From Verrucomicrobiales bacterium (GTDB lineage Bacteria > Verrucomicrobiota > Verrucomicrobiia > Verrucomicrobiales > V1-33), in assembly GCA_050998515.1 (NCBI GenBank), contig JBPCQC010000079.1, positions 6,177 to 70,176 of the forward strand: a stretch of 64,000 nt of DNA, given 5' to 3'. Within the stretch, counting starts at the first letter, position 1, and every line of letters starts with the position of its first letter. This document shows positions 36,611-48,916 of the stretch, in pieces. The notes under the pieces were generated by a model that was not told the DNA's origin, did no database searches, and saw only the letters and a program-made list of their open reading frames with translations. Made by a program: the position numbers and the translations under genes.

Positions 36611-38440
36611 TCAACGCTCCAACCGGGAAAGGGTGGCGACAACTTCCTTTTGTTCTTTCGAGGAGATGGGTGCGGCGGCTTCAGCCAGTCCAGCGTAACT
36701 GAGGCGGGTTTGGCGGGCCAAAATCTGTTCGAGCTCGCCGTTAAGCCCGCTCGCGGTGCCGGCCCGCCCATGGTAGAATTCCCGGGAATCGACGAATTCG
36801 CGGGCGAGAGCATAAAAGTCGCGCGCGGCCAATCCGGGACGCTTCATTTGGCGCAAGATAACCAGGGAGGCTCTTGGATGGCCGATTCGGCGGCGGCGTG
36901 TCTCCTCTGCGCTCAGCCGCAACCGTCGCTGCAGTCCCATGCCAGCGAAGGTTAAAACAAGAGCGGCAGGCACCGCCTGAATGCCCCAAAATACCGCGGC
37001 GTCGGATTTTCGCGGGGTCAGGTTGCGCAGTTCGGCGCCTTCCGGCCTCACCGTGAGGATGTCCGCAAGACGCTCCTCCGGAATCGCCGCTTCGGATATC
37101 GCGAAATCTTTGGTCGGTGCTTCATCGCTTCCTGCTGGCGCCGCTTTCTCCTCGGGCGTCATTTGCAGCGGAATCGCATTCGATTGCACGGTCACGTATT
37201 TTTTTTGATCGAGGTCAAAATAGGAGAGCTGAAACGGCGGGACCTGCTGAGCCATTTTTTGAGGGATGATCACCTGGCTGAAACTGACGACGCCGGGCTC
37301 GAGTCCCAGCGAGCGATTTTCCTGCGTTTGCTTGGGCGGATAGATTTTCCAGCCTTCCGGTGAGGCCAGAAGGGGCGCCGCAACGCTGTCGAAGTTCCCC
37401 TGGCCTGCCACGGTGAGGTCGACGGCGAGCGGGTCACCCATTCGCACTTGCGGCGGTTGATTGAGACGGGCACTGAGGGTGAATTTCCCGACCGCACCCG
37501 AGAAATCAGCCGGCCGGCCTTCCGTTGGGAGCGGCTTGATGGTGATCTTGAGCACGTTGCTTTCGAGGTGGATTTGTCGGGTGATAGTGCGCTGAAAAAA
37601 CGATGGAAATCCGGGAGTTGGGGTGCGGGCACCGCTCCCTTCGGAAGGAAAATCGACCACGCAGTCCAACGTGGCGGGGCCAAGGTTCAAGAGACCCTCC
37701 TTAATGGCGGAAAGTGAGCTGCTGAAGACAATTGATTGGTACCGTTCGCCCTTGGCCTCGACCAACTCTCCCTGAAGCGGCTGAGCGAAACGTTTCACGA
37801 CAAAGTTGTCACGCGGCAACTTCGGAGGCTCGTAATTGCGCAGTTGGGTGCGTCGGTGAAACAAAGCGGTCACCTTCAAGGGCACCACTTCGCCCACGAA
37901 GATCTCCGGCTGCTCGACCTGCAGGGTGAGCAAAGGTTCATAGGAATGCCGCGGACCGACCCCTTCCTGCACCTGCAAGGTTTTTTCAGGCACCGACAGG
38001 GCCTGGCCGTTGACGATCACCTGCTGCCCCGGAATGGTAAAAAGCCCCGGGTTAGCCGCAAAAATCTGCCAGACGAACTCGGTTTGCTGCCGCAACACAC
38101 CGTTCGTCAAGCTCATGGAATTGCGGGAACTCGGCCCGTTGAATTCAAGACCCGGGACAGCAAGATTGGTGGGCAACTGTTGGATCTGGTGGCCGTTCTC
38201 GATCGTGAGCGAATATTCAGCGGTCTGACCCGCGCCAATGACCGGCGGCGAAACTGTGGCCGTTACCTGGGCTCGAACGGATGAGATGGACGCCATGAGG
38301 GCGGCGACTATTGGGAGGAAGGCAATTATGGACGGGCGCAATGATGGTGGACGCGACGCCTCGTCGCGTCTGGCGAATTCACTGAACGCGACGGGGGCGC
38401 CGCGTCCACCTTTCCAAATGTTGGGAGGACCGTTTCCCAT
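36611..38440 (-). CDS. batD: BatD-like oxygen-tolerance protein
   Basis: First ATG at 38440 (the track start is TTG). N-terminal hydrophobic segment IIAFLPIVAALMASISSVRAQ. Large periplasmic region, then a C-terminal TM helix plus a cytosolic TPR-like tail, typical of BatD. Confidence 0.75.
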   Translation of the reverse strand: MGNGPPNIWKGGRGAPVAFSEFARRDEASRPPSLRPSIIAFLPIVAALMASISSVRAQVTATVSPPVIGAGQTAEYSLTIENGHQIQQLPTNLAVPGLEFNGPSSRNSMSLTNGVLRQQTEFVWQIFAANPGLFTIPGQQVIVNGQALSVPEKTLQVQEGVGPRHSYEPLLTLQVEQPEIFVGEVVPLKVTALFHRRTQLRNYEPPKLPRDNFVVKRFAQPLQGELVEAKGERYQSIVFSSSLSAIKEGLLNLGPATLDCVVDFPSEGSGARTPTPGFPSFFQRTITRQIHLESNVLKITIKPLPTEGRPADFSGAVGKFTLSARLNQPPQVRMGDPLAVDLTVAGQGNFDSVAAPLLASPEGWKIYPPKQTQENRSLGLEPGVVSFSQVIIPQKMAQQVPPFQLSYFDLDQKKYVTVQSNAIPLQMTPEEKAAPAGSDEAPTKDFAISEAAIPEERLADILTVRPEGAELRNLTPRKSDAAVFWGIQAVPAALVLTFAGMGLQRRLRLSAEETRRRRIGHPRASLVILRQMKRPGLAARDFYALAREFVDSREFYHGRAGTASGLNGELEQILARQTRLSYAGLAEAAAPISSKEQKEVVATLSRLER

Positions 38441-38445
38441 GGCGA

Positions 38446-40509
38446 CTACCAATCCTTAAATGTGCCTTCCGGCACCGCCTTGTCCGCGAGTGGCCGAACA
38501 TAATCCTCGTCGGTCAGCGCGCGCAGCAGGGCGCGCGCCTCGTTTCGGCTAAAGCCCGTGGTCTTGTCCCGCCGGTTGTCACCCTGGGCCATTTGTTGCG
38601 CCCGTTTCTTCTTCGCGTCTCCCGATTCTCCCTGGCCAGCGTTGCTTTTCGCCTCGAGCTTGCCTTCGGCGTTTTGTTCCCCGCGGCGTTCCTTTTCATT
38701 TCCTTCAGGCGGCGTTTGGTTGGGATCCTCCTTGCCGCCTCCTTTTTGGCCGCCTTCCTGCGGTTTACTTCCCTCGCCAGGATTTTGTCCCTCTTCTCCC
38801 TTTCCTTCCTCCCCCTCCTCCTCTTCTCCTTCTCCCTCGTCTTCACCTTCTTCGTCACCTTGCTCTCCTGAATTTCCCGATTCCCCCTCTTCGCCCTGTT
38901 GGCCGTTGGGTTGCTGCTCGCCTTGCTGACCGCCCTGTTGCTTGTTCTTCTTGCCCGCTTTGCTTTTTTGTCTCAGCTGCTCGCGATATTTCTTCAATTC
39001 TTCCAGGTATTTCTTTACCTCGTCACGGTTGTGCTGGGCGTCACCGTTCCCGGGAGCGAGGGCAAGCGACGCGTCATAATGCTCGACGGCCGTGGTCAGA
39101 ATGTCGATCATCCGGGTGATACGTCCCTTGCCTTTCGGCAGCGATTGCGCTTTGCCTGCCAGGGCGTTGGCGAGGTTGTATTCCGCCTGGGCCTGATTGG
39201 ACGGGGTCTTCGAGATCAGGGCCCGTCCAAATGACTCGATCGCGGCATCGAAATCCTTAAGCCGATAGGCGGCGGCGGCGCGGCCAAATTCCAATTGGGC
39301 CAGCCGTTCGTCGGAAGGTTTCTTTTCAATTGAGTCGCCGAAGGCGTCGAGCGACTCTTCGTATTGCTGCGCTTGGTAAAGCTGCCACGGGTTTTGTGCG
39401 GCGCGAGGTTTTTGAGCCACAGCCGCACTGAGATTGGTGGCGCCGGTAACGAGCACGAGACCGGCCCACGCTACCGCCGGTCTTGACATCATCGAAGGCG
39501 TCCAGAAGCGCAGCCGCCGACCCATTTTCACGACAAAGGCCGCTGCAAAACACAGGAGAGCGGGAACCAAAGCCCATCGATAACGCTCGATTGGCTGGCG
39601 CTTGTCCTTTTGCGCCTGCGTGCGTGAACGGTCTAATTTGGAAAGAATCACCTGAATACGCCCTTGTAGAACACTCGTACTGCTAAGATTGAGATAAAGC
39701 CCCTGCGTTTCTTTAGCCACACCCTCCAAAGCCTTGTCTTCGAGACGAGAGCGCACCGGCCGCCCTTTTTCGTCTCGCAAAAATCCGCCCGGCCGGCGCG
39801 AGTTGAAGTCTGGCAGCAGGGTCCCTTCACGCGTGCCTACGCCGACAGCCACGATAATAATATTGTGGTCCTTTGCTTTTTTGGCGGCCTCGATGGCTCG
39901 ACCCTCGGTCTCGTCACCATCGGTGAACATAATCAAAGCATGGCTGGCACTGCCGGACTTGTCAAAAGCCTCGATGGCAAGCTCGATCGGTTCCGCGAGG
40001 TTCGATCCGCCGCGGGGAATCAGTTCCTCGTCGAATTGGGCCAGAGTTTCGAGAAGCGCGTCATGGTCGGTGGTGAGAGGCGCCTGGAGAAACGAGCGCC
40101 CGGCAAAGGCGATCAGCCCAATCCTGTCGCCCGGCAACGCCGCGATGAGGTCCTGTGCCGCCAGCTTGGCTCGAGTCAGCCGATCAGGGGTTAGATCAGT
40201 CGCCAGCATCGAGCGCGAAGTGTCCAAAGCGATGATGATCGAGCGCCCCTGGCCGCTGACCTCCCGTTCGGTGTAGCCCCACTGAGGCCGGGCCCAGGCG
40301 GCCACCAGCAGGAGCAGGCCGAGAAGTTCGAGCAAAAAGACGAACGCATCGCGGCCGCGCCAGCCTCCCTGTTTGAGGCTCGAAAGCAAGCGCGGGCCCG
40401 CCACCCGCGCCAGCCGCCGCCGCCCCATTCCATCAGCGATGATTTTCACCACCGCGAGCGGAATGAGCAGCAGCAAAAAGAGAAAAGCGTCGGCGTTGGC
40501 GAATTGCAT
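38446..40509 (-). CDS. batB: BatB-BatC fusion: N-terminal TM + vWA domain, central TM, TPR region, ~150-aa poly-acidic E/G/Q-rich tail
   Basis: ATG 40507-40509 (MQFANADAFLFLLLLIPLAVV). vWA MIDAS context (IIIALDTSRSM...TDG). TPR (AAAYRLKDFDAAIESFGRAL). Tail GEEGESGNSGEQGDEEGEDEGEGEEEEGEEGKGEEG. Confidence 0.8.
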   Translation of the reverse strand: MQFANADAFLFLLLLIPLAVVKIIADGMGRRRLARVAGPRLLSSLKQGGWRGRDAFVFLLELLGLLLLVAAWARPQWGYTEREVSGQGRSIIIALDTSRSMLATDLTPDRLTRAKLAAQDLIAALPGDRIGLIAFAGRSFLQAPLTTDHDALLETLAQFDEELIPRGGSNLAEPIELAIEAFDKSGSASHALIMFTDGDETEGRAIEAAKKAKDHNIIIVAVGVGTREGTLLPDFNSRRPGGFLRDEKGRPVRSRLEDKALEGVAKETQGLYLNLSSTSVLQGRIQVILSKLDRSRTQAQKDKRQPIERYRWALVPALLCFAAAFVVKMGRRLRFWTPSMMSRPAVAWAGLVLVTGATNLSAAVAQKPRAAQNPWQLYQAQQYEESLDAFGDSIEKKPSDERLAQLEFGRAAAAYRLKDFDAAIESFGRALISKTPSNQAQAEYNLANALAGKAQSLPKGKGRITRMIDILTTAVEHYDASLALAPGNGDAQHNRDEVKKYLEELKKYREQLRQKSKAGKKNKQQGGQQGEQQPNGQQGEEGESGNSGEQGDEEGEDEGEGEEEEGEEGKGEEGQNPGEGSKPQEGGQKGGGKEDPNQTPPEGNEKERRGEQNAEGKLEAKSNAGQGESGDAKKKRAQQMAQGDNRRDKTTGFSRNEARALLRALTDEDYVRPLADKAVPEGTFKDW

Positions 40510-40510
40510 C

Positions 40511-40537
40511 TGAATTGCGGATTGCGGATTGCGGAGC
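40511..40537. repeat. Heptamer tandem array (ATTGCGG)x3, left flank of the four-helix-bundle gene
   Basis: TGAATTGCGGATTGCGGATTGCGGAGC immediately after the batBC start. Confidence 0.7.
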
Positions 40538-40549
40538 TATCGGAGGGTT

Positions 40550-40846
40550 CTATTTCGAGGAACGCGCTGTGCGAATTGAAGCAACGATGATGGAAAGAAT
40601 TTCTTCGCCTTCTCGGTGCAAATCAGCCAGCCTCTCCGGCTTCATTAGTCCTGCCTCGCAGAGCAGTTCGAACCAATTAAGGGTTTCATCCGCCTCTTCT
40701 TCAACGATTCCCAACTTGGCGATGAAGTCGGCCTTCGATTTTCCGCGACAAGCTGAGCGGTAGTTTGCGCCCACGGACGTCGCGGCCTTTAGCAACTGGC
40801 GACAGATTACTTCTGTGCTTCGGCGCGGCGGTAGCGCGTCCAGCAC
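40550..40846 (-). CDS. Four-helix-bundle protein (23S rRNA intervening-sequence protein family), N-terminally truncated
   Basis: GTG start. QLLKAATSVGANYRSACRGKSKADFIAKLGIVEEEADETLNWFELL matches the family core (QLRRAA.SIPSNIAEG..R.S..DF..FL.IA.GS..E...). The first helix (~35 aa) is missing. Flanked by inverted GGATTGC heptamer arrays. Confidence 0.55.
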   Translation of the reverse strand: MLDALPPRRSTEVICRQLLKAATSVGANYRSACRGKSKADFIAKLGIVEEEADETLNWFELLCEAGLMKPERLADLHREGEEILSIIVASIRTARSSK

Positions 40847-40932
40847 CTTGATGACGCGCCGCGAACTGCTTCGTCCGTTCTTTGTGCTGTTCAGTCTTTG
40901 AGTTCATGATTCGCAATGGTGTGCCGAACCTC

Positions 40933-40967
40933 GAATTTCCCAATCCGAAATCCGCAATCCGAAATTC
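40933..40967. repeat. Heptamer array in inverted orientation (CCGAAAT/CCGCAAT), right flank of the four-helix-bundle gene
   Basis: GAATTTCCCAATCCGAAATCCGCAATCCGAAATTC is the reverse complement of the 40511-40537 motif family. Confidence 0.7.
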
Positions 40968-42065
40968 TCATGCAGGAATCTCCCGCATGAGAGTTTGCCT
41001 CAGCGCCATGCCGATGGCCGCGGTGAAAAATGCCGCGCCGACAAACCATTCGAACAGCTCGTCACGTTCGACCAGGGTCTGCCTTTTGATCTCAGTTTTC
41101 TCGAGCCTGTCAATCGTCCCAAAAATCCGCTCGAGGCCGCTGGTATCCTGGGCCCGAAAAAACTGGCCTCCAGTCATGTCGGCAATCCTCTTCATGATTT
41201 CGGTGTCGAATTCCTGCCTCATCCCGGGCAGGTAACGACCGGATCGATCAGGCAGCGGAATGCGGTGATAGCCTTCCGTGCCGACAGCGATGGCGTAAAC
41301 TTTGATGCCGAGATTCTGGGCAAAACGTGCCGCATCCAGCGGCGCAATATTCCCGGAGTTATTCGAGCCGTCGGTTAACAGCACGATCACCTTGCTCTTC
41401 ACGTCCTTGTTGCGGCTGTCAAGGCGCCGGGTCGCGGCAGCGATTCCCGAGCCGATGGCGGTGCCGTCCTCGACGGCTCCCATTCTGACCTGTTCCTCGA
41501 GCGTTTTACGCAGCCACTGGTGGTCGAGCGTAAGCGGACTGGCCACATAGGGCCTTCCGGCAAAGGCAACCAGGCCGATCCGATCGCTCGGGCGGCCGGC
41601 GATAAAATCGCGGCACACCCTTTTCGCGACCGACATGCGATTGACCGTCTGCCCGCCGCTGGTGAAGTCCTCGATCGACATCGAAAGCGAGACATCGATG
41701 GTGAGCATGACTTCGATGCCGCTGCTGGTGATATTTTCCTGCGTGCGCACATGCTGGGGACGGGCCAGCGCGGCGATGCCGAGCGCGAGCGTGAGGTACG
41801 GCAACGCCGCCGAAAACATCCCGAGCGCGGATCGTCCCGGCCGGGCGATCTGTCGCAGCAGGTGGAGTGAGGAAAATGTCACCGCGGGTCCAGCGCCGCG
41901 TGCCCCCCGCAAAAATGCCAGCACCGGCAACAACGCGAGCAGCCAAAACCAGGCTGGCTCCGCAAACTGGCATTCCCTTACGTAGCGCCAAAAGCTCTCA
42001 ATACGGAACGGGAAGTCCACAGCGCTTTGGGTTGAATGAGAAAGCATCCGCCTGTGACGGCGCAT
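40968..42065 (-). CDS. batA: BatA-like protein (TM + vWA domain)
   Basis: ATG 42063-42065; the family-typical start lies near FAEPAWFWLLALLPVLAFL. vWA MIDAS (MLTIDVSLSMSIED...LLTDGSNNSG). C-terminal TM. Confidence 0.8.
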   Translation of the reverse strand: MRRHRRMLSHSTQSAVDFPFRIESFWRYVRECQFAEPAWFWLLALLPVLAFLRGARGAGPAVTFSSLHLLRQIARPGRSALGMFSAALPYLTLALGIAALARPQHVRTQENITSSGIEVMLTIDVSLSMSIEDFTSGGQTVNRMSVAKRVCRDFIAGRPSDRIGLVAFAGRPYVASPLTLDHQWLRKTLEEQVRMGAVEDGTAIGSGIAAATRRLDSRNKDVKSKVIVLLTDGSNNSGNIAPLDAARFAQNLGIKVYAIAVGTEGYHRIPLPDRSGRYLPGMRQEFDTEIMKRIADMTGGQFFRAQDTSGLERIFGTIDRLEKTEIKRQTLVERDELFEWFVGAAFFTAAIGMALRQTLMREIPA

Positions 42066-42810
42066 TGGCCGGAAGGGGCGGTGGCCCGGGAGGAAGCATC
42101 GGATTGCGGATTGCGGATTTCGGATCTCGGATTTCAGGCGCCACGCCCTGAACTGCCCGAAGGTCTGCTGCCGGCTCTGGCATTTCGAGTTCGTTCGATT
42201 GAACGAGAATTACAGGCAAAGGAGGCGGAGGAGGCGAAGCGGGATTTCGGATTTCGGAGGGCGGAGTGGGGATTTTCAATTCAGGATTCGGCATTCTCCA
42301 GTCCGGCGCATTTTGATCTTGCTCGACGGCGGCAATGGCTTGCTCGACCAACATCATCCGCTCGGCGCGGGCGGATTCGATGCGCCCATATTTTATGCGG
42401 TCACAGCCGCGCAGAACCGGTTCGAATGTGCGCAAAAAGGGGAGGGGAGGAGGACCGCCGCCGCCATTGCGGCCAATCATCTCATCGGTGGTTCGATAGC
42501 GAGCGAGCAGCCCTCTGGCCCTTTGCAGATAATGCCGGAGGCTTTCGCTGACCGCCCCGGCCAGTTCTGCCGAATCAAGAGTTCCGGCCAGCGCCTTTAA
42601 CTCTCCCAATTCGCGCAACGCCGCGGTGCCTGCACTCAGCGGCAACGGGGGCAGGCGCGGGTGCCGCCGGATCCAACGCACCCAGGCAATCAACGCCAAA
42701 AATAAACCGACCGCCACAATCGCTCCGAACACTGACCAGACGATCACCCGCGCTGGATCGGGCGGCTCGACGGGTGGCGCAATATCGCGAAGTTCAGGAA
42801 AGGGAGGCAC
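41998..42810 (-). CDS. DUF4381-like small membrane protein of bat operons, with a 3-prime extension running through heptamer repeats
   Basis: GTG start (MPPFPELRDIAPPVEPPDPARVIVW + TM helix). The last ~100 codons translate GGATTGC/GGATTTC repeats (…SEIRNPASP…PEIRDPKSAIRNP…) and overlap batA by 68 nt, so the effective end is questionable. Confidence 0.5.
   Translation of the reverse strand: MPPFPELRDIAPPVEPPDPARVIVWSVFGAIVAVGLFLALIAWVRWIRRHPRLPPLPLSAGTAALRELGELKALAGTLDSAELAGAVSESLRHYLQRARGLLARYRTTDEMIGRNGGGGPPPLPFLRTFEPVLRGCDRIKYGRIESARAERMMLVEQAIAAVEQDQNAPDWRMPNPELKIPTPPSEIRNPASPPPPPLPVILVQSNELEMPEPAADLRAVQGVAPEIRDPKSAIRNPMLPPGPPPLPANAPSQADAFSFNPKRCGLPVPY
42101..42138. repeat. Heptamer array (GGATTGC/GGATTTC) at the batA 5-prime end / DUF4381 tail
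   Basis: GGATTGCGGATTGCGGATTTCGGATCTCGGATTTCAGG. Confidence 0.65.
42241..42295. repeat. Heptamer array (GGATTTC variants) inside the DUF4381-like ORF tail
   Basis: GGGATTTCGGATTTCGGAGGGCGGAGTGGGGATTTTCAATTCAGGATTCGG. Confidence 0.6.
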
Positions 42811-42830
42811 GGGCGCAAGGTAGAATGCAG

Positions 42831-42858
42831 AATGCAGGATGCAGAAGGAAATTTAGGC
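42831..42858. repeat. Related heptamer array (GAATGCA)x3-4 between the DUF58 and DUF4381 genes
   Basis: TAGAATGCAGAATGCAGGATGCAGAAGG. Confidence 0.55.
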
Positions 42859-42875
42859 CGTTCTGCGGTTTGCGT

Positions 42876-43781
42876 TTACCTGCTTCCTCGCTTTTCCCTG
42901 CGGCGGAAAAAGCCATGCAAGGCCGCCTGGTAGTCTTCACCGGCCCGGACGTCGATTTTGTCTATCGAGAGTGATTTGAAGGCGCGGTCGAGGTTTTCCT
43001 GCCACGCGGTGCGCAAAGCGGTGTAATGGCTGCGCACCCGAGCCTTGGCTGTGTTGACGACGATTTCCTCACCCGTCTCAGGATCGGCCAGGCGCAGCCG
43101 GCCGGCATTGGGCAGGGCCAGCTCGGCCGGGTCGGAGACCTGGATCGCGACCACGTCATGTCGAATGGCCGCCGTCCGCAGCGCCGCCTGAACGTTTTCA
43201 CACTGAAAATCAGAAATGACCAGAACCAGACAACGCCGGCTGGTGTGACGGCTGATGAGATCAAGCGCAGGCTTCGGATCCGTGCCGCGCCCGAGAGCCC
43301 GCGCGTAAAGGATGTCACGCACCATGCGAAGCGTCTGCCGGCGGCTCTTCGCCGGAGGCAGGAACAGCTCGACCTGATCGGAAAAAAGCACCAGTCCGCA
43401 CTTGTCCTGGTTGTAGATCGCGGAAAAAGCAAAGACCGCCGCCACCTCCGCGGCCAGTTCACGCTTCGATTGCTCGAGGCTCCCATAAAGGCCCGAACCG
43501 CTGACATCGACCGCCAGATAAACCGTCAGCTCGCGCTCCTCGACGTACTTGCGGATAAACGGTGTCCCTTGCCTCGCCGTGACGTTCCAGTCAATCGACC
43601 GCACTTCATCGCCGGGCTGGTATTCCCTGAAATCATCGAAGTCGATCCCCTGGCCCTTGAACACCGAATGATATTCCCCGCCCGCCTTCGAGCGCACAAT
43701 GCCGCGCGTGATCAGTTCGATGCGCCGAACCTTTTTGAGGAGTTCGGTGATTGAATCGGGCTCGGGAGATACGGTGGCCAT
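42876..43781 (-). CDS. DUF58 protein (MoxR-associated vWA-like)
   Basis: First ATG at 43781 (track start TTG 43787). DUF58 block (GEYHSVFKGQGIDFDDFREYQPGDEVRSIDWNVTAR). Confidence 0.85.
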   Translation of the reverse strand: MATVSPEPDSITELLKKVRRIELITRGIVRSKAGGEYHSVFKGQGIDFDDFREYQPGDEVRSIDWNVTARQGTPFIRKYVEERELTVYLAVDVSGSGLYGSLEQSKRELAAEVAAVFAFSAIYNQDKCGLVLFSDQVELFLPPAKSRRQTLRMVRDILYARALGRGTDPKPALDLISRHTSRRCLVLVISDFQCENVQAALRTAAIRHDVVAIQVSDPAELALPNAGRLRLADPETGEEIVVNTAKARVRSHYTALRTAWQENLDRAFKSLSIDKIDVRAGEDYQAALHGFFRRREKRGSR

Positions 43782-43924
43782 CGGCAATGCTATGATTGGT
43801 AATTGTTAAATGCCAATATGCTTTGCCTTCTCGGGCGGCTTGAGATGATTTCGCGCACAATTACCACTGAAGAATTGCTAGACAGCACCTCCGTCAATTG
43901 CGACGGGCAAATTCAAGCTTGTAA

Positions 43925-44180
43925 ATGCCATCCGCAGGCTTGCGAACGCCCCATACGAGCCTGCGAATGGCAGAAACAAGTCTGAAATCGCCATCCGCAG
44001 GCTTGCGGACGCCAAATACAAGCTGCGGAGGGCGTATGCAGGCTTGCGGACGCGAAAAACGAACCTGCGGACGACACAAACTGACTCGTCGCCCGCAGAG
44101 ACCCACTCAGGAACCGCAAAAACAGGTTTGCGATTGCCGAAAGCGAGTGTGCAAGCGGGGATGACCTGCTTGCGACTGGT
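43925..44180. repeat. Iteron-like array of a ~16-nt motif GCAGGCTTGCGGACGC (three direct copies plus several inverted/partial copies at irregular spacing)
   Basis: CCATCCGCAGGCTTGCGAACGCC at 43928-43950. CCATCCGCAGGCTTGCGGACGCC at 43991-44013. ATGCAGGCTTGCGGACGCG at 44036-44054. Inverted AGCCTGCGAATGG at 43957-43970. CCTGCGGACGA at 44064-44074. Confidence 0.6.
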
Positions 44181-44337
44181 TACTTCGGCTTTGCCGATCC
44201 CTTTCCTGGGAGGGGTATGCGCTCCCGAACCGTAGTGGCAGGCCGTTGCTTCGCCGTGCCATCTTTAACAAAGCGGCCGTTCACCGCGCTCCGTTCTCCG
44301 ATTCTACTTTGTGGCTTCTTGCTGATGATCTCCTTTC

Positions 44338-44366
44338 TTGGGTGATGTCTCCTCCACTTTATATTG
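44338..44366 (+). promoter_or_regulatory. Candidate sigma70-type promoter for the methyltransferase gene (TTGGGT-17-TATATT)
   Basis: -35 TTGGGT at 44338-44343, 17-nt spacer, -10 TATATT at 44361-44366, 25 nt upstream of ATG 44392. Sequence match only. Confidence 0.35.
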
Positions 44367-44391
44367 GGGCTCGATTCTGATCAAGCACAAC

Positions 44392-46087
44392 ATGCAGGCC
44401 ACTGAGGTCGAAAACTCGCCTTGTCATCGGTGGTCCGAACCCGCACAATTCCGTTTAATGGGAACGCTCTATTACGGCGACAATCTCGATATTCTGCGCC
44501 GCTACATCGAGGACGAGTCGGTCGACCTCGTTTACCTCGATCCGCCGTTCAACTCAGCGCAAAACTACAACGCCTTCTTTCAGGAAAAGGACGGGACCGC
44601 GGCGGCGGCGCAGATCAGCGCTTTCGAGGACACGTGGGAGTGGAATCAGGAGGCCGAGCACGTTTACGGCGAGCTGATTACCCGGGCAGGCAAGGTCCGT
44701 GAGGTGATGGAAGCCTTCATGACCTTTCTCGGTCGCAACGACATGATGGCCTACCTCGTCATGATGGCCCCGCGTCTGGTCGAGCTGCGCCGCGCCCTCA
44801 AGAAAACCGGCTCCCTTTACCTGCACTGCGACCCGACGGCTTCCCATTACCTGAAGCTGCTGCTGGATGCGGTGTTTGGAATTGACGGCTACCGCTCTGA
44901 AATTGTGTGGAAAAGGACGACAACTCACAACGATTCCAAGCGATGGTCCGACAACACCGACACAGTTTTCTTCTATACAAAAAGCAGAGGCAATTCGGAA
45001 TCGTTTACTTGGAACCCGCAGCACGACCAATATAGTGAGGACTACCTCGCCGATAAATATCGTTACGATGATGGCGACGGCCGGGGATCTTACCGGCTCG
45101 ACAACATGACGAGTCCGAACCCAAGGCCGAATATGATGTACGAGTGGAAAGGGCACGCATCACCGGAGAAAGGTTGGCGGTACTCGAAAGAAACAATGGC
45201 GCAGTTAGATGCCGAAGGACGTATCTGGTACCCTTCGAGTAAGGACAAGCGTCCTCAGCTGAAGCGCTACCTCGCGCAAGGCAAAGGTCCTGTCATGGGC
45301 AACCTGTGGACCGACATCAACCCCATCAATTCCCAAGCTCAGGAGCGTCTTGGTTATCCGACCCAAAAGCCCGTAGCCTTGCTCGAGAGGATCATTAAAG
45401 CGAGCTCCGACGAAGGCGACGTAGTGCCTCGATCCCTTCTGCGGGTGTGGTACGACAATTGACGCCGCGGAAAAACTAGGTCGGGATTGGATTGGGATCG
45501 ACATAACCTATCTGGCGATTGCACTGATCAAGAACCGGCTCAAAAGCTCGTACGGCGAGGGCATTCACCTGAAAACGGTGGGAGAGCCGGTCAGTCTCGC
45601 GGATGCGCAGCAGTTGGCGAATGATGACAAATTCCAATTCCAATGGTGGGCGCTGGGGTTGGTAGGCGCGCGCCCGGTGGAGGAAAAGAAAGGCGCCGAT
45701 AAAGGGGTGGACGGCAAGATTTTGTTTAGGGAAACACCCAAAGACCCGAAGTCGCAACAGATCATCTTTTCCGTTAAAGGCGGCGGAGTGAGTGTAAAGG
45801 ACATTCGCGATCTGCGCGGCACCGTCGAGCGAGAGAAGGCGCTCATCGGAGTGCTGGTAACGATGAAGAAGCCGACCAAGGACATGCTATCGGAGGCGGC
45901 CTCGGCTGGTTTTTACGAAAGCACCGTCTGGCAGAAACAGTATCCGAAGCTGCAAATCCACACCGTGGCGGAATTGCTCGATGGCAAGCAGGTCCAGCGC
46001 CCGCCAACCCGGGCGCTGGATGAGACTTTCAAGAACGCGCCGAAGGCACAGAAAAAAGGGGACGAGCAACTGGAGCTACTTCAATGA
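44392..46087 (+). pseudogene. Beta-class N6/N4 DNA methyltransferase fused to a C-terminal Mrr-type PD-(D/E)xK restriction-endonuclease domain, interrupted by a 1-nt frameshift
   Basis: Motif IV DPPF (VDLVYLDPPFN). ...GYPTQKPVALLERIIKASSDEGDVV, then the frame breaks at 45427-45428 (GTGCCTCGAT; one C too many). The +1 frame continues LDPFCGCGTT (motif I) uninterrupted into track ORF 45578..46087, whose product matches Mrr_cat (WALGLVGA...DKGVDGKILF...QQIIFSVKGGGVSVKDIRDLRGTV...GVLVT...). Track pieces: 44338..45462 and 45578..46087. Confidence 0.75.
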
Positions 46088-46542
46088 TCATTGGCGTAAA
46101 TGCGACAAAAGAGGCGATCTTCTTTGCGGAGACGGACACAGCTGGACAAACTTTTTCAATTAAGATCAAACGGTTGGCATTTAACCTGACGGAAACTGAG
46201 GGGCTATTAGATCTGTTCCAAAGCGTCTCCACTCTTCTCTCTGGATATGACCCGGCCAGGTTGACAGCCGTGGCAATATTGCGATGCTGTGGGGGCCAAC
46301 GAGCGTCATCGGTTGAGGCGATCAAAGCTGAAGCCGTCACCGAGTTGGCGATTCGCAAAAAGGCGATCAAGGTCCTCGGTGTGACTCCTCACAGCTTGAA
46401 GAAAGCGTTGCAGTGTGAGGGAGGGCAAAAATGGCGACCACGCGCCAAGCAGCTCTTTAATTCAAACGGTCAACACTCCTATTGGAGTCAAGGCGCGGAT
46501 GGAGCTGTCGCAGCGGCATATAAGGCGAGTCCTCCTCATTGA
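46084..46542 (+). CDS. Hypothetical protein (152 aa), translationally coupled to the flanking genes
   Basis: ATG overlaps the upstream stop (ATGA at 46084-46087) and its stop sits 1 nt before the kinase ATG. No recognisable domain. About 50% GC, below the window background. Confidence 0.5.
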   Translation: MIIGVNATKEAIFFAETDTAGQTFSIKIKRLAFNLTETEGLLDLFQSVSTLLSGYDPARLTAVAILRCCGGQRASSVEAIKAEAVTELAIRKKAIKVLGVTPHSLKKALQCEGGQKWRPRAKQLFNSNGQHSYWSQGADGAVAAAYKASPPH

Positions 46543-46543
46543 G

Positions 46544-47581
46544 ATGTCGTTACCGCGGAAATTTACGAATGTGCGGCAGTTGGGGCCTGGAAAAAACGCT
46601 AAAGTCTTTTCCGCGACGAACAGTTATCTTCAACGAGAGGTCTTTCTAAAAGTTTACCCAATTCCGGCGAGTGATTCATTGTCAGCCCTTAAAGAACCCC
46701 AACTCCTACAGGAGCTTGAGCATCCGAACCTCACGAAAATCTACAGCGCTGACCCTTCCACCGACGATCAAATCCTTTTGGAGATCGAACTGATTGATGG
46801 AGGATCGTTCAAAGACATCATAGACGAAGCCGTCAAAACTGCCACGTGGCCTGCCGTTCACTACTGTCTCGACCTGATTCAAGACGCCGCTGCTGGGTTG
46901 AGCCACCTCCACGCTCACGGTTATGTGCATCGTGATATAAAGCCCGCCAATCTTGTCGTGAAACGCTCACGGGGCCGGCCTCACGGCCTCGTAACCGATC
47001 TTGGCTTTGCAAGCAAACTGAACGATTCCGGGCGAGCATTCGCCAGCCAACACTCGAGGTTGTATCGACCTCCGGAGGTTTGGTCGGGTGCCGGGTATTC
47101 AGTGGCCAGTGACGTGTATCAGCTCGGATTGGTGTTGTTTCAACTTCTCGGCGGCAGCCTAGACCATTCGCTAGCCAACCTGTCAGATAGTGACCTTTTT
47201 ACACGAGTGGCGGCATCGAAATTGGTGGTGGTGGACTCAGTCGGCGCGCACGTTAGCGATTCGTTGCTGCGAGTCATACGGGCATGCATCTGTGGTGAGA
47301 ATCAACGAATCAGCTCGATTAGTGACCTCGTGGTGGGGTTAAACAATGTAAAAGCAAAGCATCCCAATTGGCGCCTCACTTGGGGACCCCATGGATTCCG
47401 CCTTGACCGAAAAGATGCGTCCGGCATGAAGATCAAAGTGGAAGTCAAATCCGCCGGGCATACGCATACCGTGCAGCGCAGCAAAGGCCGGGGCAACTTT
47501 CGGGCGATCGGTGATGCAGGTCAGTTCACGCATCGCAACTTGGGACGCTGCCGCAAATTCCGTCAGTTTATTGAGTTGTAA
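46544..47581 (+). CDS. Hanks-type Ser/Thr protein kinase
   Basis: ATG 46544. Gly-rich loop LGPGKNAKVF, Lys in VFLKVY, catalytic loop HRDIKPANLVV, DLGFA (DFG variant), YRPPEVW (APE-like). About 50% GC. Confidence 0.75.
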   Translation: MSLPRKFTNVRQLGPGKNAKVFSATNSYLQREVFLKVYPIPASDSLSALKEPQLLQELEHPNLTKIYSADPSTDDQILLEIELIDGGSFKDIIDEAVKTATWPAVHYCLDLIQDAAAGLSHLHAHGYVHRDIKPANLVVKRSRGRPHGLVTDLGFASKLNDSGRAFASQHSRLYRPPEVWSGAGYSVASDVYQLGLVLFQLLGGSLDHSLANLSDSDLFTRVAASKLVVVDSVGAHVSDSLLRVIRACICGENQRISSISDLVVGLNNVKAKHPNWRLTWGPHGFRLDRKDASGMKIKVEVKSAGHTHTVQRSKGRGNFRAIGDAGQFTHRNLGRCRKFRQFIEL

Positions 47582-47616
47582 TCCTTTGGCTTGTGCTGCG
47601 GACGGTCGAGGAGAAG

Positions 47617-47849
47617 TCACTGGAGCGGAGTAGCAGCGAGCCGCGCCTTCAAAAAGCGAATCCGGCTTCGCTGAAGCATGACGATTGCAATCAAAGCCAG
47701 CGTAAGCAGGGGCCAGATAATGCAGAATATCCAGATGTTGATCGCTTCGTAAGAGATTCCCAGCAGCCGGGCACCATCGAATAGGATTTCCACGCACCAT
47801 GTAAAGATGGCCTGGGTCAGCGGCGCCGGTTGTATAAGGTCGTGCTCGA

Positions 47850-47853
<4 letters not shown>
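47617..47853 (-). CDS. Possible small two-TM membrane protein, GTG start overlapping the moxR stop (GTGA)
   Basis: 78 codons, hydrophobic (IFTWCVEILF...; IWIFCIIWPLLTLALIAIVML). No ATG start, atypical codons for this genome and ~52% GC, so this may be non-coding. Confidence 0.25.
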
Positions 47854-48839
<986 letters not shown>

Positions 48840-48916
48840 GGGGCGGGAACCTAGGAGAGGATTGCTAAAAAGCAAAAGCGTTGAGCCAAAGCAATCCGCG
48901 GCGTAGAGTGAGGGGC

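Follow-up and report, generated by a model that had tools for sequence, protein, structure and literature searches.

In the 64,000-nucleotide stretch of Verrucomicrobiales bacterium contig JBPCQC010000079.1 analyzed here (hereafter, the window; positions are counted from its first letter), two adjacent genes at positions 46084-47581 are predicted to constitute a self-contained and horizontally mobile cassette, in which a 152-amino-acid (aa) protein with a RuvC fold and putatively without nuclease activity (hereafter, the RuvC-like protein) is encoded together with a dedicated Hanks-type Ser/Thr kinase of 345 aa. The stop codon of the 152-aa open reading frame (ORF) (46084-46542; TGA at 46540-46542) is separated by one base from the ATG of the kinase ORF (46544-46546; the ORF ends at 47581), and the ATG of the 152-aa ORF (46084-46086) overlaps with the TGA (46085-46087) of the preceding ORF (45578-46087), which carries part of a DNA methyltransferase gene. 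Both junctions (ATGA at 46084-46087 and TGA-g-ATG at 46540-46546), to which the first-pass annotation of this DNA had drawn attention, are present in the sequence. That annotation had combined the three genes into one tight transcription and translation unit; the coupling of the 152-aa gene with the kinase gene stood, as it recurs in 13 of 13 loci (see below), and the membership of the methyltransferase gene in the unit was not supported, as this gene is frameshifted and was not found at the other loci bearing the pair. Literature searches gave no description of a module composed of a RuvC-like protein and a kinase.

Conservation of the gene pair

Every locus of the kinase clade (see below) that could be fetched was used for the analysis of the pairing, namely 13 loci including the window, which represent approximately 11 independent contexts. 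The loci examined were L001, L004/5/6, L087/88, L089, L090/91, L092/93, L094, L095, L180, and the window; L114, L116, and L126, which are the same element as L175-179, were also examined. A homologue of the RuvC-like gene was located immediately upstream of the kinase gene in all 13 loci, with -4 to +8 nucleotides (nt) between the stop codon and the ATG, and the two genes overlapped through ATGA in five of the 13. The pairing held in clade members whose kinases were only 41-48% identical to that of the window. When pairwise identities in 10 loci were compared with the Mantel test, those of the RuvC-like protein and those of the kinase co-varied (r = 0.91, p = 4e-4). The coupling of the two genes is far beyond chance.

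No third conserved gene was found by all-versus-all BLAST of the flanks of the pair loci; the only recurring flank gene encoded a weak DUF4145/HEPN-like protein in two divergent loci. A homologue of the methyltransferase was not found by tblastn in 203 kb from 22 loci bearing the RuvC-like/kinase pair. Because no other flank gene recurs and the methyltransferase is absent from the 22 pair loci, we regard the pair as the functional unit. The examination of conserved neighbourhoods that the first-pass annotation had recommended retained the RuvC-like gene and the kinase gene, and not the methyltransferase gene.

The DUF4145/HEPN-like protein mentioned above (218 aa, with an RNxxxH-type motif) is encoded in the two most divergent pair loci (L090:8149-8805 and L094:5454-6110), where its gene adjoins the pair on the downstream side at one locus and on the upstream side at the other; the gene is absent from the window. 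This protein may be an accessory effector in the divergent subclade.

The RuvC-like protein

The 152-aa protein has ten close relatives in the database, and its homologues showed 42-58% identity with E-values of 1e-25 to 1e-47. The N-terminus, MI[IFL]G[VI]NATK, is conserved exactly at the annotated ATG, and the divergence at codon positions 1, 2, and 3 of the gene was 0.39, 0.28, and 0.67, respectively, a pattern typical of purifying selection on a coding sequence. Judged from these comparisons, the ORF is a real gene, coding and under purifying selection, and the doubt about its conservation and coding signal that the first-pass annotation had raised is removed.

The structure prediction proposed at that stage was performed with AlphaFold2 (AF2) and gave a confident model (predicted local distance difference test (pLDDT), 87.2; predicted template modeling score (pTM), 0.84), in which the order of the secondary structure elements is that of RuvC. 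When the model was compared with the PDB by using Foldseek, the top 12 matches were all RuvC resolvases (E-values, 1.6e-7 to 6e-6; template modeling score (TM), 0.65-0.74). A PDB sequence search with the profile of the RuvC-like family gave no meaningful match, and scans with Pfam, NCBIfam, PADLOC, and PHROGs detected no specific family covering the protein.

The family profile was also searched against 1.84 billion representatives, in which the family comprised only 120 clusters at 50% identity. The profile reached a genuine RuvC (P0220, which by itself matches Pfam RuvC with an E-value of 3e-35) at an E-value of 8e-4 and over nearly the full length. In this alignment, the catalytic Glu of P0220 (AIEKIF) is opposite L66 of the window protein (AILKCS), and, in its last helix (HHASDAAA), His and Asp are opposite Y133 and Q136; by manual extension of the alignment, GIDPG was placed opposite GVNAT, with N6 facing the first Asp. 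(An alignment of the family with an E. coli RuvC sequence by hhalign gave only a local match of 23 residues and was not used for the residue mapping.) The divergent members and the family consensus keep the same substitutions, and position 6 is N, S, or T, never Asp; S75/S76 of the RuvC-like protein are conserved. The alignment and the model point to a RuvC fold from which all four catalytic residues have been lost (N6, L66, Y133, and Q136 at the respective positions). Since all four positions are non-acidic, the RuvC-like protein should not cleave DNA, and we predict that it is inactive as a nuclease.

Compared with RuvC (PF02075; PDB: 7xhj, 6lw3, and 1hjr), the protein has the same RNase-H-like fold and a similar size (approximately 150 aa), whereas the catalytic tetrad (D, E, D/H, and D) is absent, the scores are below the cut-offs of both RuvC models (Pfam, 18.7 bits with the cut-off of 22.2; NCBIfam, 15 bits with the cut-off of 163), and the gene is accompanied by a kinase gene, not by ruvAB. 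A phage origin of the family was unsupported, because a scan of the IMG/VR viral contigs with the RuvC-like alignment gave 0 relatives and the family was unmatched in PHROGs.

The kinase

The kinase domain scored 111 bits with Pfam PF00069 (Pkinase; cut-off, 31.7). As the first-pass annotation had described, its catalytic motifs are complete: the Lys of VFLK (K36; 46649-46651), HRDIKPAN (from 46928), and DLG (46997-47005). In the alignment of 56 clade members, from which conservation of the catalytic residues was read, K36, H129/R130/D131/K133/N136, D152/G154, YRPPE (P177-E178), and D190 were invariant (56/56), and the kinase is predicted to be catalytically competent. The clade consists of approximately 60 clusters (345-350 aa, 41-60% identity), beyond which the score falls from 287 to 85 bits, and it is by these scores discrete from other kinases. 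HARLYRPPEVW and, in the C-terminal part, DLGRCRxFR are motifs specific to the clade. The question of whether the kinase is a housekeeping one remote from restriction-modification (R-M) loci, which the first-pass annotation had posed, received a divided answer: the kinase is not a housekeeping enzyme, but the clade to which it belongs has no relation to R-M loci.

Beyond the kinase core, the clade members have in common a C-terminal domain of approximately 75 aa. The structure of this part was predicted separately (residues 256-345, 35 sequences), as had been proposed, and a confident fold was obtained (pLDDT, 92), consisting of a helix, an antiparallel sheet of four or five strands, and a terminal helix; it had no match to a known fold. 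The domain is always strongly basic (isoelectric point (pI) of 11.7 and net charge of +11 over 72 aa in the window; median pI of 10.6 and net charge of +8 in the family). A word-indexed search with the alignment of the C-terminal domain returned zero sequences, the parent kinases themselves not being recovered either, and a scan of genome contigs with the kinase alignment and generic motifs (HRDIKPAN) retrieved only unrelated kinases of approximately 30% identity and did not recover the orthologues. In PHROGs, the kinase had a generic kinase match only.

Among known defence proteins, the kinase resembles those of the Stk2/PD-T4-6 type in that it is a Hanks-type kinase of approximately 300-350 aa with intact catalytic residues, located on accessory DNA. 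However, Stk2 and PD-T4-6 are single genes, whereas the present kinase has an obligate RuvC-like partner (13/13 loci) and a clade-specific basic C-terminal domain. Like Stk2, the present kinase, once triggered, would plausibly phosphorylate many targets. In the PADLOC library, the window kinase matched PD-T4-6 with an E-value of 6.6e-31 and mad6, its best match, with an E-value of 4.2e-35. Three ordinary kinases (a PASTA kinase, a Streptomyces kinase, and a TPR-kinase) were used as controls with the same library, and their E-values were 1e-90 to 1e-130 for PD-T4-6 and 1e-68 to 1e-81 for mad6. As the ordinary kinases score far higher, the matches of the window kinase reflect the kinase domain only, and a match to the PD-T4-6 models is uninformative about membership.

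MAD6 of the methylation-associated defence system (MADS) was also the best match in NCBIfam; the similarity extends slightly beyond the kinase core, and a methyltransferase gene adjoins the pair in the window, but the kinase reaches only 105 of the 460 bits that NCBIfam requires. For the detection of MADS with the MacSyFinder model, MAD6, MAD7, and MAD8 are mandatory together in an eight-gene operon (10.1101/2023.03.30.534895). MAD7, MAD8, and the other MADS components are absent from the island of the window, which consists of the methyltransferase remnant, the RuvC-like gene, and the kinase gene. As for type 2 of the bacteriophage exclusion system (BREX type 2/Pgl), the PglW score was 46 bits with the cut-off of 990 bits, and no pgl genes were found nearby. 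On the basis of the control with ordinary kinases and of the comparison with the cut-offs, the assignment of the kinase to PD-T4-6 or MADS was rejected.

RuvC-like genes without a kinase

The alignment of the RuvC-like protein was also compared with metagenome data, which yielded 164 loci, and the presence of the kinase was scored in the best 80 of the 164; only four of these 80 had it. The remainder form a kinase-less subfamily with the N-terminus GVSPTK (L096-L174; e.g., L156:1066-1476), which is 40-45% identical to the window protein, is found in variable chromosomal contexts, and has no Pfam family of its own. The SRAP/YedK gene was directly downstream in 13 of the GVSPTK loci, the gene for ribosomal protein S21 was upstream in seven, and on one contig two copies were present approximately 16 kb apart (L103 and L107). 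Because most family members stand alone without a kinase, this catalytically dead RuvC fold has a role independent of the kinase, possibly in DNA repair or on damaged or branched DNA. The kinase always has a RuvC-like partner, whereas the partner family is often without a kinase; one branch of this family recruited the kinase clade.

With regard to the variable neighbours, the adjoining gene fragments, and the two copies on one contig, we considered that the standalone genes might be small mobile elements. This idea was unsupported: the flank similarity detected with blastn mostly stops at the gene or runs into the syntenic S21 gene, and no conserved ends were found. In the comparison of L152/L158 with L149/L151, which are from near-identical strains (99% DNA identity), the similarity was lost within the standalone RuvC-like gene, approximately 11-32 nt short of its stop codon, and, between the pair loci L087 and L088, a segment of approximately 1.3 kb just downstream of the kinase gene differed; these genes seem to have a hotspot of recombination or insertion on their 3' side. 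Two other kinases were observed near RuvC-like genes. In L172 (1592-2690), a RuvC-like gene of the standalone type is followed, 113 nt on, by a different, ordinary Pkinase gene that is cut by the contig end, and, in L121, a gene for a kinase-TPR protein of 940 aa lies on the opposite strand approximately 900 nt from the RuvC-like gene. Such proximity could be due to chance, as soil bacteria are rich in kinases, or could represent another, independent link between RuvC-like proteins and kinases.

The upstream methyltransferase gene

The reading frame with the N6_N4_Mtase domain starts from ATG at 44392 (ORF 44392-45462) and terminates after SSDEGDVV-PRSLLRVWYDN; motif I (LDPFCGCGTT), the remaining part of the methyltransferase, and the restriction endonuclease (REase)-like domain are encoded in another frame, from approximately 45425. 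Deletion of one base gave a protein of 564 aa, of which residues 26-554 were aligned by tblastn as a single piece, with 44-46% identity, to intact homologues. These homologues, annotated as 'site-specific DNA-methyltransferase' (543-574 aa), are encoded on Mesorhizobium, Microbacterium, and Bradyrhizobium plasmids. The plasmid records of Mesorhizobium and Microbacterium were inspected, and in both of them the gene was solitary, with neither a kinase nor a RuvC-like gene as a neighbour. Thus, the methyltransferase gene, which had been taken as an intact methyltransferase-nuclease gene, loses its frame at 45423-45427 and is interrupted here, as a pseudogene or by an assembly error; because no other long ORF of the window is disrupted, the frameshift is probably genuine, that is, the gene is probably a pseudogene.

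The REase-like domain is closer to the Pfam family NA-iREase1 ('inactive restriction endonuclease'; 8e-12) than to Mrr_cat (6e-6). A catalytic motif of the PD-(D/E)xK type was not found in this domain; its motif is D92/D96...S116-V-K118, in which the Ser occupies the acidic-or-Gln position of the Mrr-type (D/E/Q)xK motif, and the Ser is kept in the window and in two homologues. We conclude that the methyltransferase gene is a decaying bystander and not a partner of the pair and that its ATGA junction with the RuvC-like gene is peculiar to this genome. A perfect 12-nt palindrome with GATC at the center, CAATGATCATTG (46079-46090), spans this junction; it is probably without significance, as chance alone would give approximately 16 palindromes of this kind in 64 kb.

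Genomic context

The features of the window discussed in this study are summarized in Table 1. The island with the methyltransferase remnant and the pair (approximately 43.8-47.6 kb; approximately 3.8 kb) is on the plus strand and has a GC content of 0.52-0.56, compared with approximately 0.59 in the surroundings. It splits a complete minus-strand operon of the Bat/aerotolerance type (36611-48875; MoxR AAA_3, a small ORF, DUF58, DUF4381, BatA-VWA, VWA-TPR, and BatD) between MoxR and DUF58. Because a plus-strand segment of low GC content interrupts the minus-strand MoxR-DUF58 order, the island is regarded as an insertion. No direct repeats that would mark a site of integration were found on either side of the island, and scans of the island with Rfam and for tRNA genes were negative.

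A gap of 550 nt precedes the methyltransferase gene, and in it copies of GCAGGCTTGCGRACGC start at 43934, 43997, and 44038 within a region of imperfect tandem repeats (43899-44081). Four matches of this 16-mer were found in the window, compared with 0.21 expected, and none of 100 shuffled sequences reached four. The repeats may function as an operator or promoter, or may be left over from an insertion. At the other side of the island, the 78-aa ORF, which starts at the stop codon of the MoxR gene, encodes a hydrophobic, membrane-like stretch, IWIFCIIWPLLTLALIAIVML.

Table 1. Features of the island and its flanks in the window
Feature	Position	Strand	Basis of assignment
DUF58 gene of the host Bat/MoxR operon, left flank of the island	42876..43787	-	Pfam DUF58, E-value 5.8e-74
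GCAGGCTTGCGRACGC 16-mer, three exact copies within imperfect repeats of ~63 nt	43934..44053	+	Number of matches compared with shuffles
Beta-class N6/N4 DNA methyltransferase (DPPF motif first), N-terminal part, frame 1	44392..45424	+	Pfam N6_N4_Mtase, E-value 6.5e-25; PADLOC MTase_II/III
Frameshift site, one extra base in GTG-C-CTC-GAT between DVV and LDPFCGCGTT	45423..45427	+	Translations; single-piece alignment of the corrected protein
C-terminal part of the methyltransferase (motif I) and REase-like domain, frame 2; stop codon overlapping with the next ATG	45425..46087	+	Pfam NA-iREase1, 8.2e-12; Mrr_cat, 6e-6
152-aa RuvC-fold protein without the catalytic acidic residues; conserved upstream partner of the kinase	46084..46542	+	AF2, Foldseek, family profile, 13 loci
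Hanks-type Ser/Thr kinase domain, residues 1-270	46544..47353	+	Pfam Pkinase, E-value 8.3e-32, residues 8-253
C-terminal domain specific to the kinase clade and strongly basic (kinase residues ~271-345)	47354..47581	+	Model and charge
78-aa ORF, probably of the host operon, marking the right edge of the island	47617..47853	-	Position; no match in the Pfam scan
MoxR-type AAA+ ATPase gene, right flank of the island	47850..48875	-	Pfam AAA_3, 6.3e-62; AAA_lid_2

At the other loci, the pair was found alongside a PIN gene (L089), MazE-PIN_3 (L180), DarT-NADAR with DUF488 and a GT4-conflict glycosyltransferase (L175-179), Cas1-Cas2 with an SbcCD-like pair, SNase, a resolvase, and the DUF4145 protein (L090), the DUF4145/HEPN-like protein with Uma2 (fragment) and PIN (L094), an HTH_17 excisionase-like gene (L005), and a DUF1016 fragment (L087). 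The named hosts of the pair are Verrucomicrobiales, Chthoniobacteraceae, and Nitrospira. These contexts give the picture of an accessory cassette that moves horizontally and is often located among toxin-antitoxin (TA) and defence genes, this tendency being a qualitative one.

Discussion

The combination of an inactive protein of a junction-binding fold, translational coupling, a putatively active kinase, and its basic tail fits a sensor or regulator encoded together with an effector. We tentatively read the pair as a conflict module for anti-phage abortive infection or of a TA-like nature, with the RuvC-like protein as the sensing or regulatory component and the kinase as the effector; this is quite possible, if short of probable. 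An abortive-infection kinase, which had been put forward in the first-pass annotation, is plausible from the genomic context only. In this module, the RuvC-like protein would bind branched or unusual DNA made by invaders, or would restrain the kinase until displaced, and the kinase, once released or activated, would phosphorylate proteins of the host or the invader. The basic tail of the kinase may help to anchor the enzyme on nucleic acid or on the RuvC-like protein, and the translational coupling would keep the two proteins in a fixed stoichiometry. The analysis itself showed how the genes are arranged, the fold and its lost catalytic residues, the strict pairing with co-divergence, the independence from the methyltransferase, and the location in an island; that the module senses DNA, that it serves in defence, and which way the regulation runs are what we infer. 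Several points weigh against it: most RuvC-like relatives stand alone in ordinary chromosomal contexts without a kinase; there are only approximately 11 contexts of the pair, several of which are ordinary metabolic ones, such as ribonucleotide reductase (L092) and pyrroloquinoline quinone (PQQ) genes (L087); neither protein has a specific match to a PADLOC model, neither was found in IMG/VR viral contigs, and PHROGs gave only the generic kinase match; the putative DNA binding of either component is deduced from fold and charge only; and neither family has a characterized member.

A type II TA or addiction system, in which the kinase would be a growth-arresting toxin (HipA-like in function) and the RuvC-fold protein its antitoxin, so that the carrier DNA is stabilized and any anti-phage effect is secondary, would account for the layout of a small upstream gene followed at -4 to +8 nt by a larger gene for an enzyme in the 13 loci, for the strict co-divergence of both proteins, for the PIN, MazE-PIN, and DarT-NADAR neighbours, and for the patchy taxonomic distribution. 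HipBA-like systems are similar in these respects (a small upstream gene coupled to a Ser/Thr kinase gene; mobile, patchy, and co-located with TA pairs). HipA belongs to another family of kinases, and HipB is a repressor of the HTH type. In contrast, the present kinase is of the Pkinase family and not of the HipA family, its partner has the RuvC fold without a known antitoxin domain (no HTH, RHH, or AbrB DNA-binding domain), and the majority of the partner family is kinase-less, which is unusual for antitoxins; we consider the TA system unlikely. Signalling of DNA damage or replication stress, by which the RuvC-like protein would recognize stalled or branched DNA of the host and the kinase would phosphorylate repair or cell-cycle proteins with no invader involved, draws on the Holliday-junction resolvase fold, the strongly basic tail of the kinase, and the position of the standalone subfamily directly upstream of SRAP/YedK, an abasic-site sensor, in the 13 loci. 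However, the kinase-linked pair has no conserved link to repair genes, and its sporadic occurrence in distant phyla and islands is more in keeping with a mobile accessory function than with a core signalling pathway; we consider this explanation equally unlikely.

The model of the first-pass annotation, in which the methyltransferase-REase, the 152-aa protein, and the kinase were one system of the R-M type with phosphorylation controlling the nuclease, had in its favor the ATGA overlap at 46084-46087, the location of the three genes on the same strand, and the occurrence of kinases in methylation-based MADS. BREX type 2 (PglW) is also a methylation-based system with a kinase. Nevertheless, this model is largely refuted and very improbable: the methyltransferase gene is frameshifted, the acidic or Gln residue is missing from the REase-like domain, which is closest to an inactive-REase family, the intact methyltransferase homologues are solitary, none was found at the 22 pair loci, and the scores for MAD6 and PglW are far below the respective cut-offs.

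Returning to the conflict module, what is new is a strictly conserved cassette of a putatively dead RuvC and a kinase that was previously undescribed. It adds two families for which Pfam, NCBIfam, PADLOC v2, and PHROGs have no specific model, namely the dead-RuvC family (approximately 120 clusters) and the basic C-terminal kinase domain. The annotation of the locus is corrected in that the methyltransferase is not the partner of the RuvC-like/kinase pair, and automated PD-T4-6 or mad6 calls on kinases with PADLOC-DB v2 are unreliable as evidence of defence unless the context supports them. Kinase-based bacterial immunity is known from few systems (Stk2, PD-T4-6, KKP, and the kinases of MADS and BREX type 2), and how the kinase is switched on is unclear in most of them; the cassette would offer a concrete trigger mechanism, as the RuvC-like protein, which has lost its chemistry, has probably kept the recognition of DNA shape. 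In a bolder form, which we think distinctly unlikely, the dead RuvC-like protein would be a structure-specific sensor of Holliday junctions, forks, or phage recombination intermediates that gates the kinase through the basic C-terminal domain as an immune or stress switch. If this were true, the cassette would be a two-protein bacterial analogue of the eukaryotic kinases activated by DNA structure, and the standalone RuvC-like subfamily would be an unrecognized junction-binding factor in soil bacteria.

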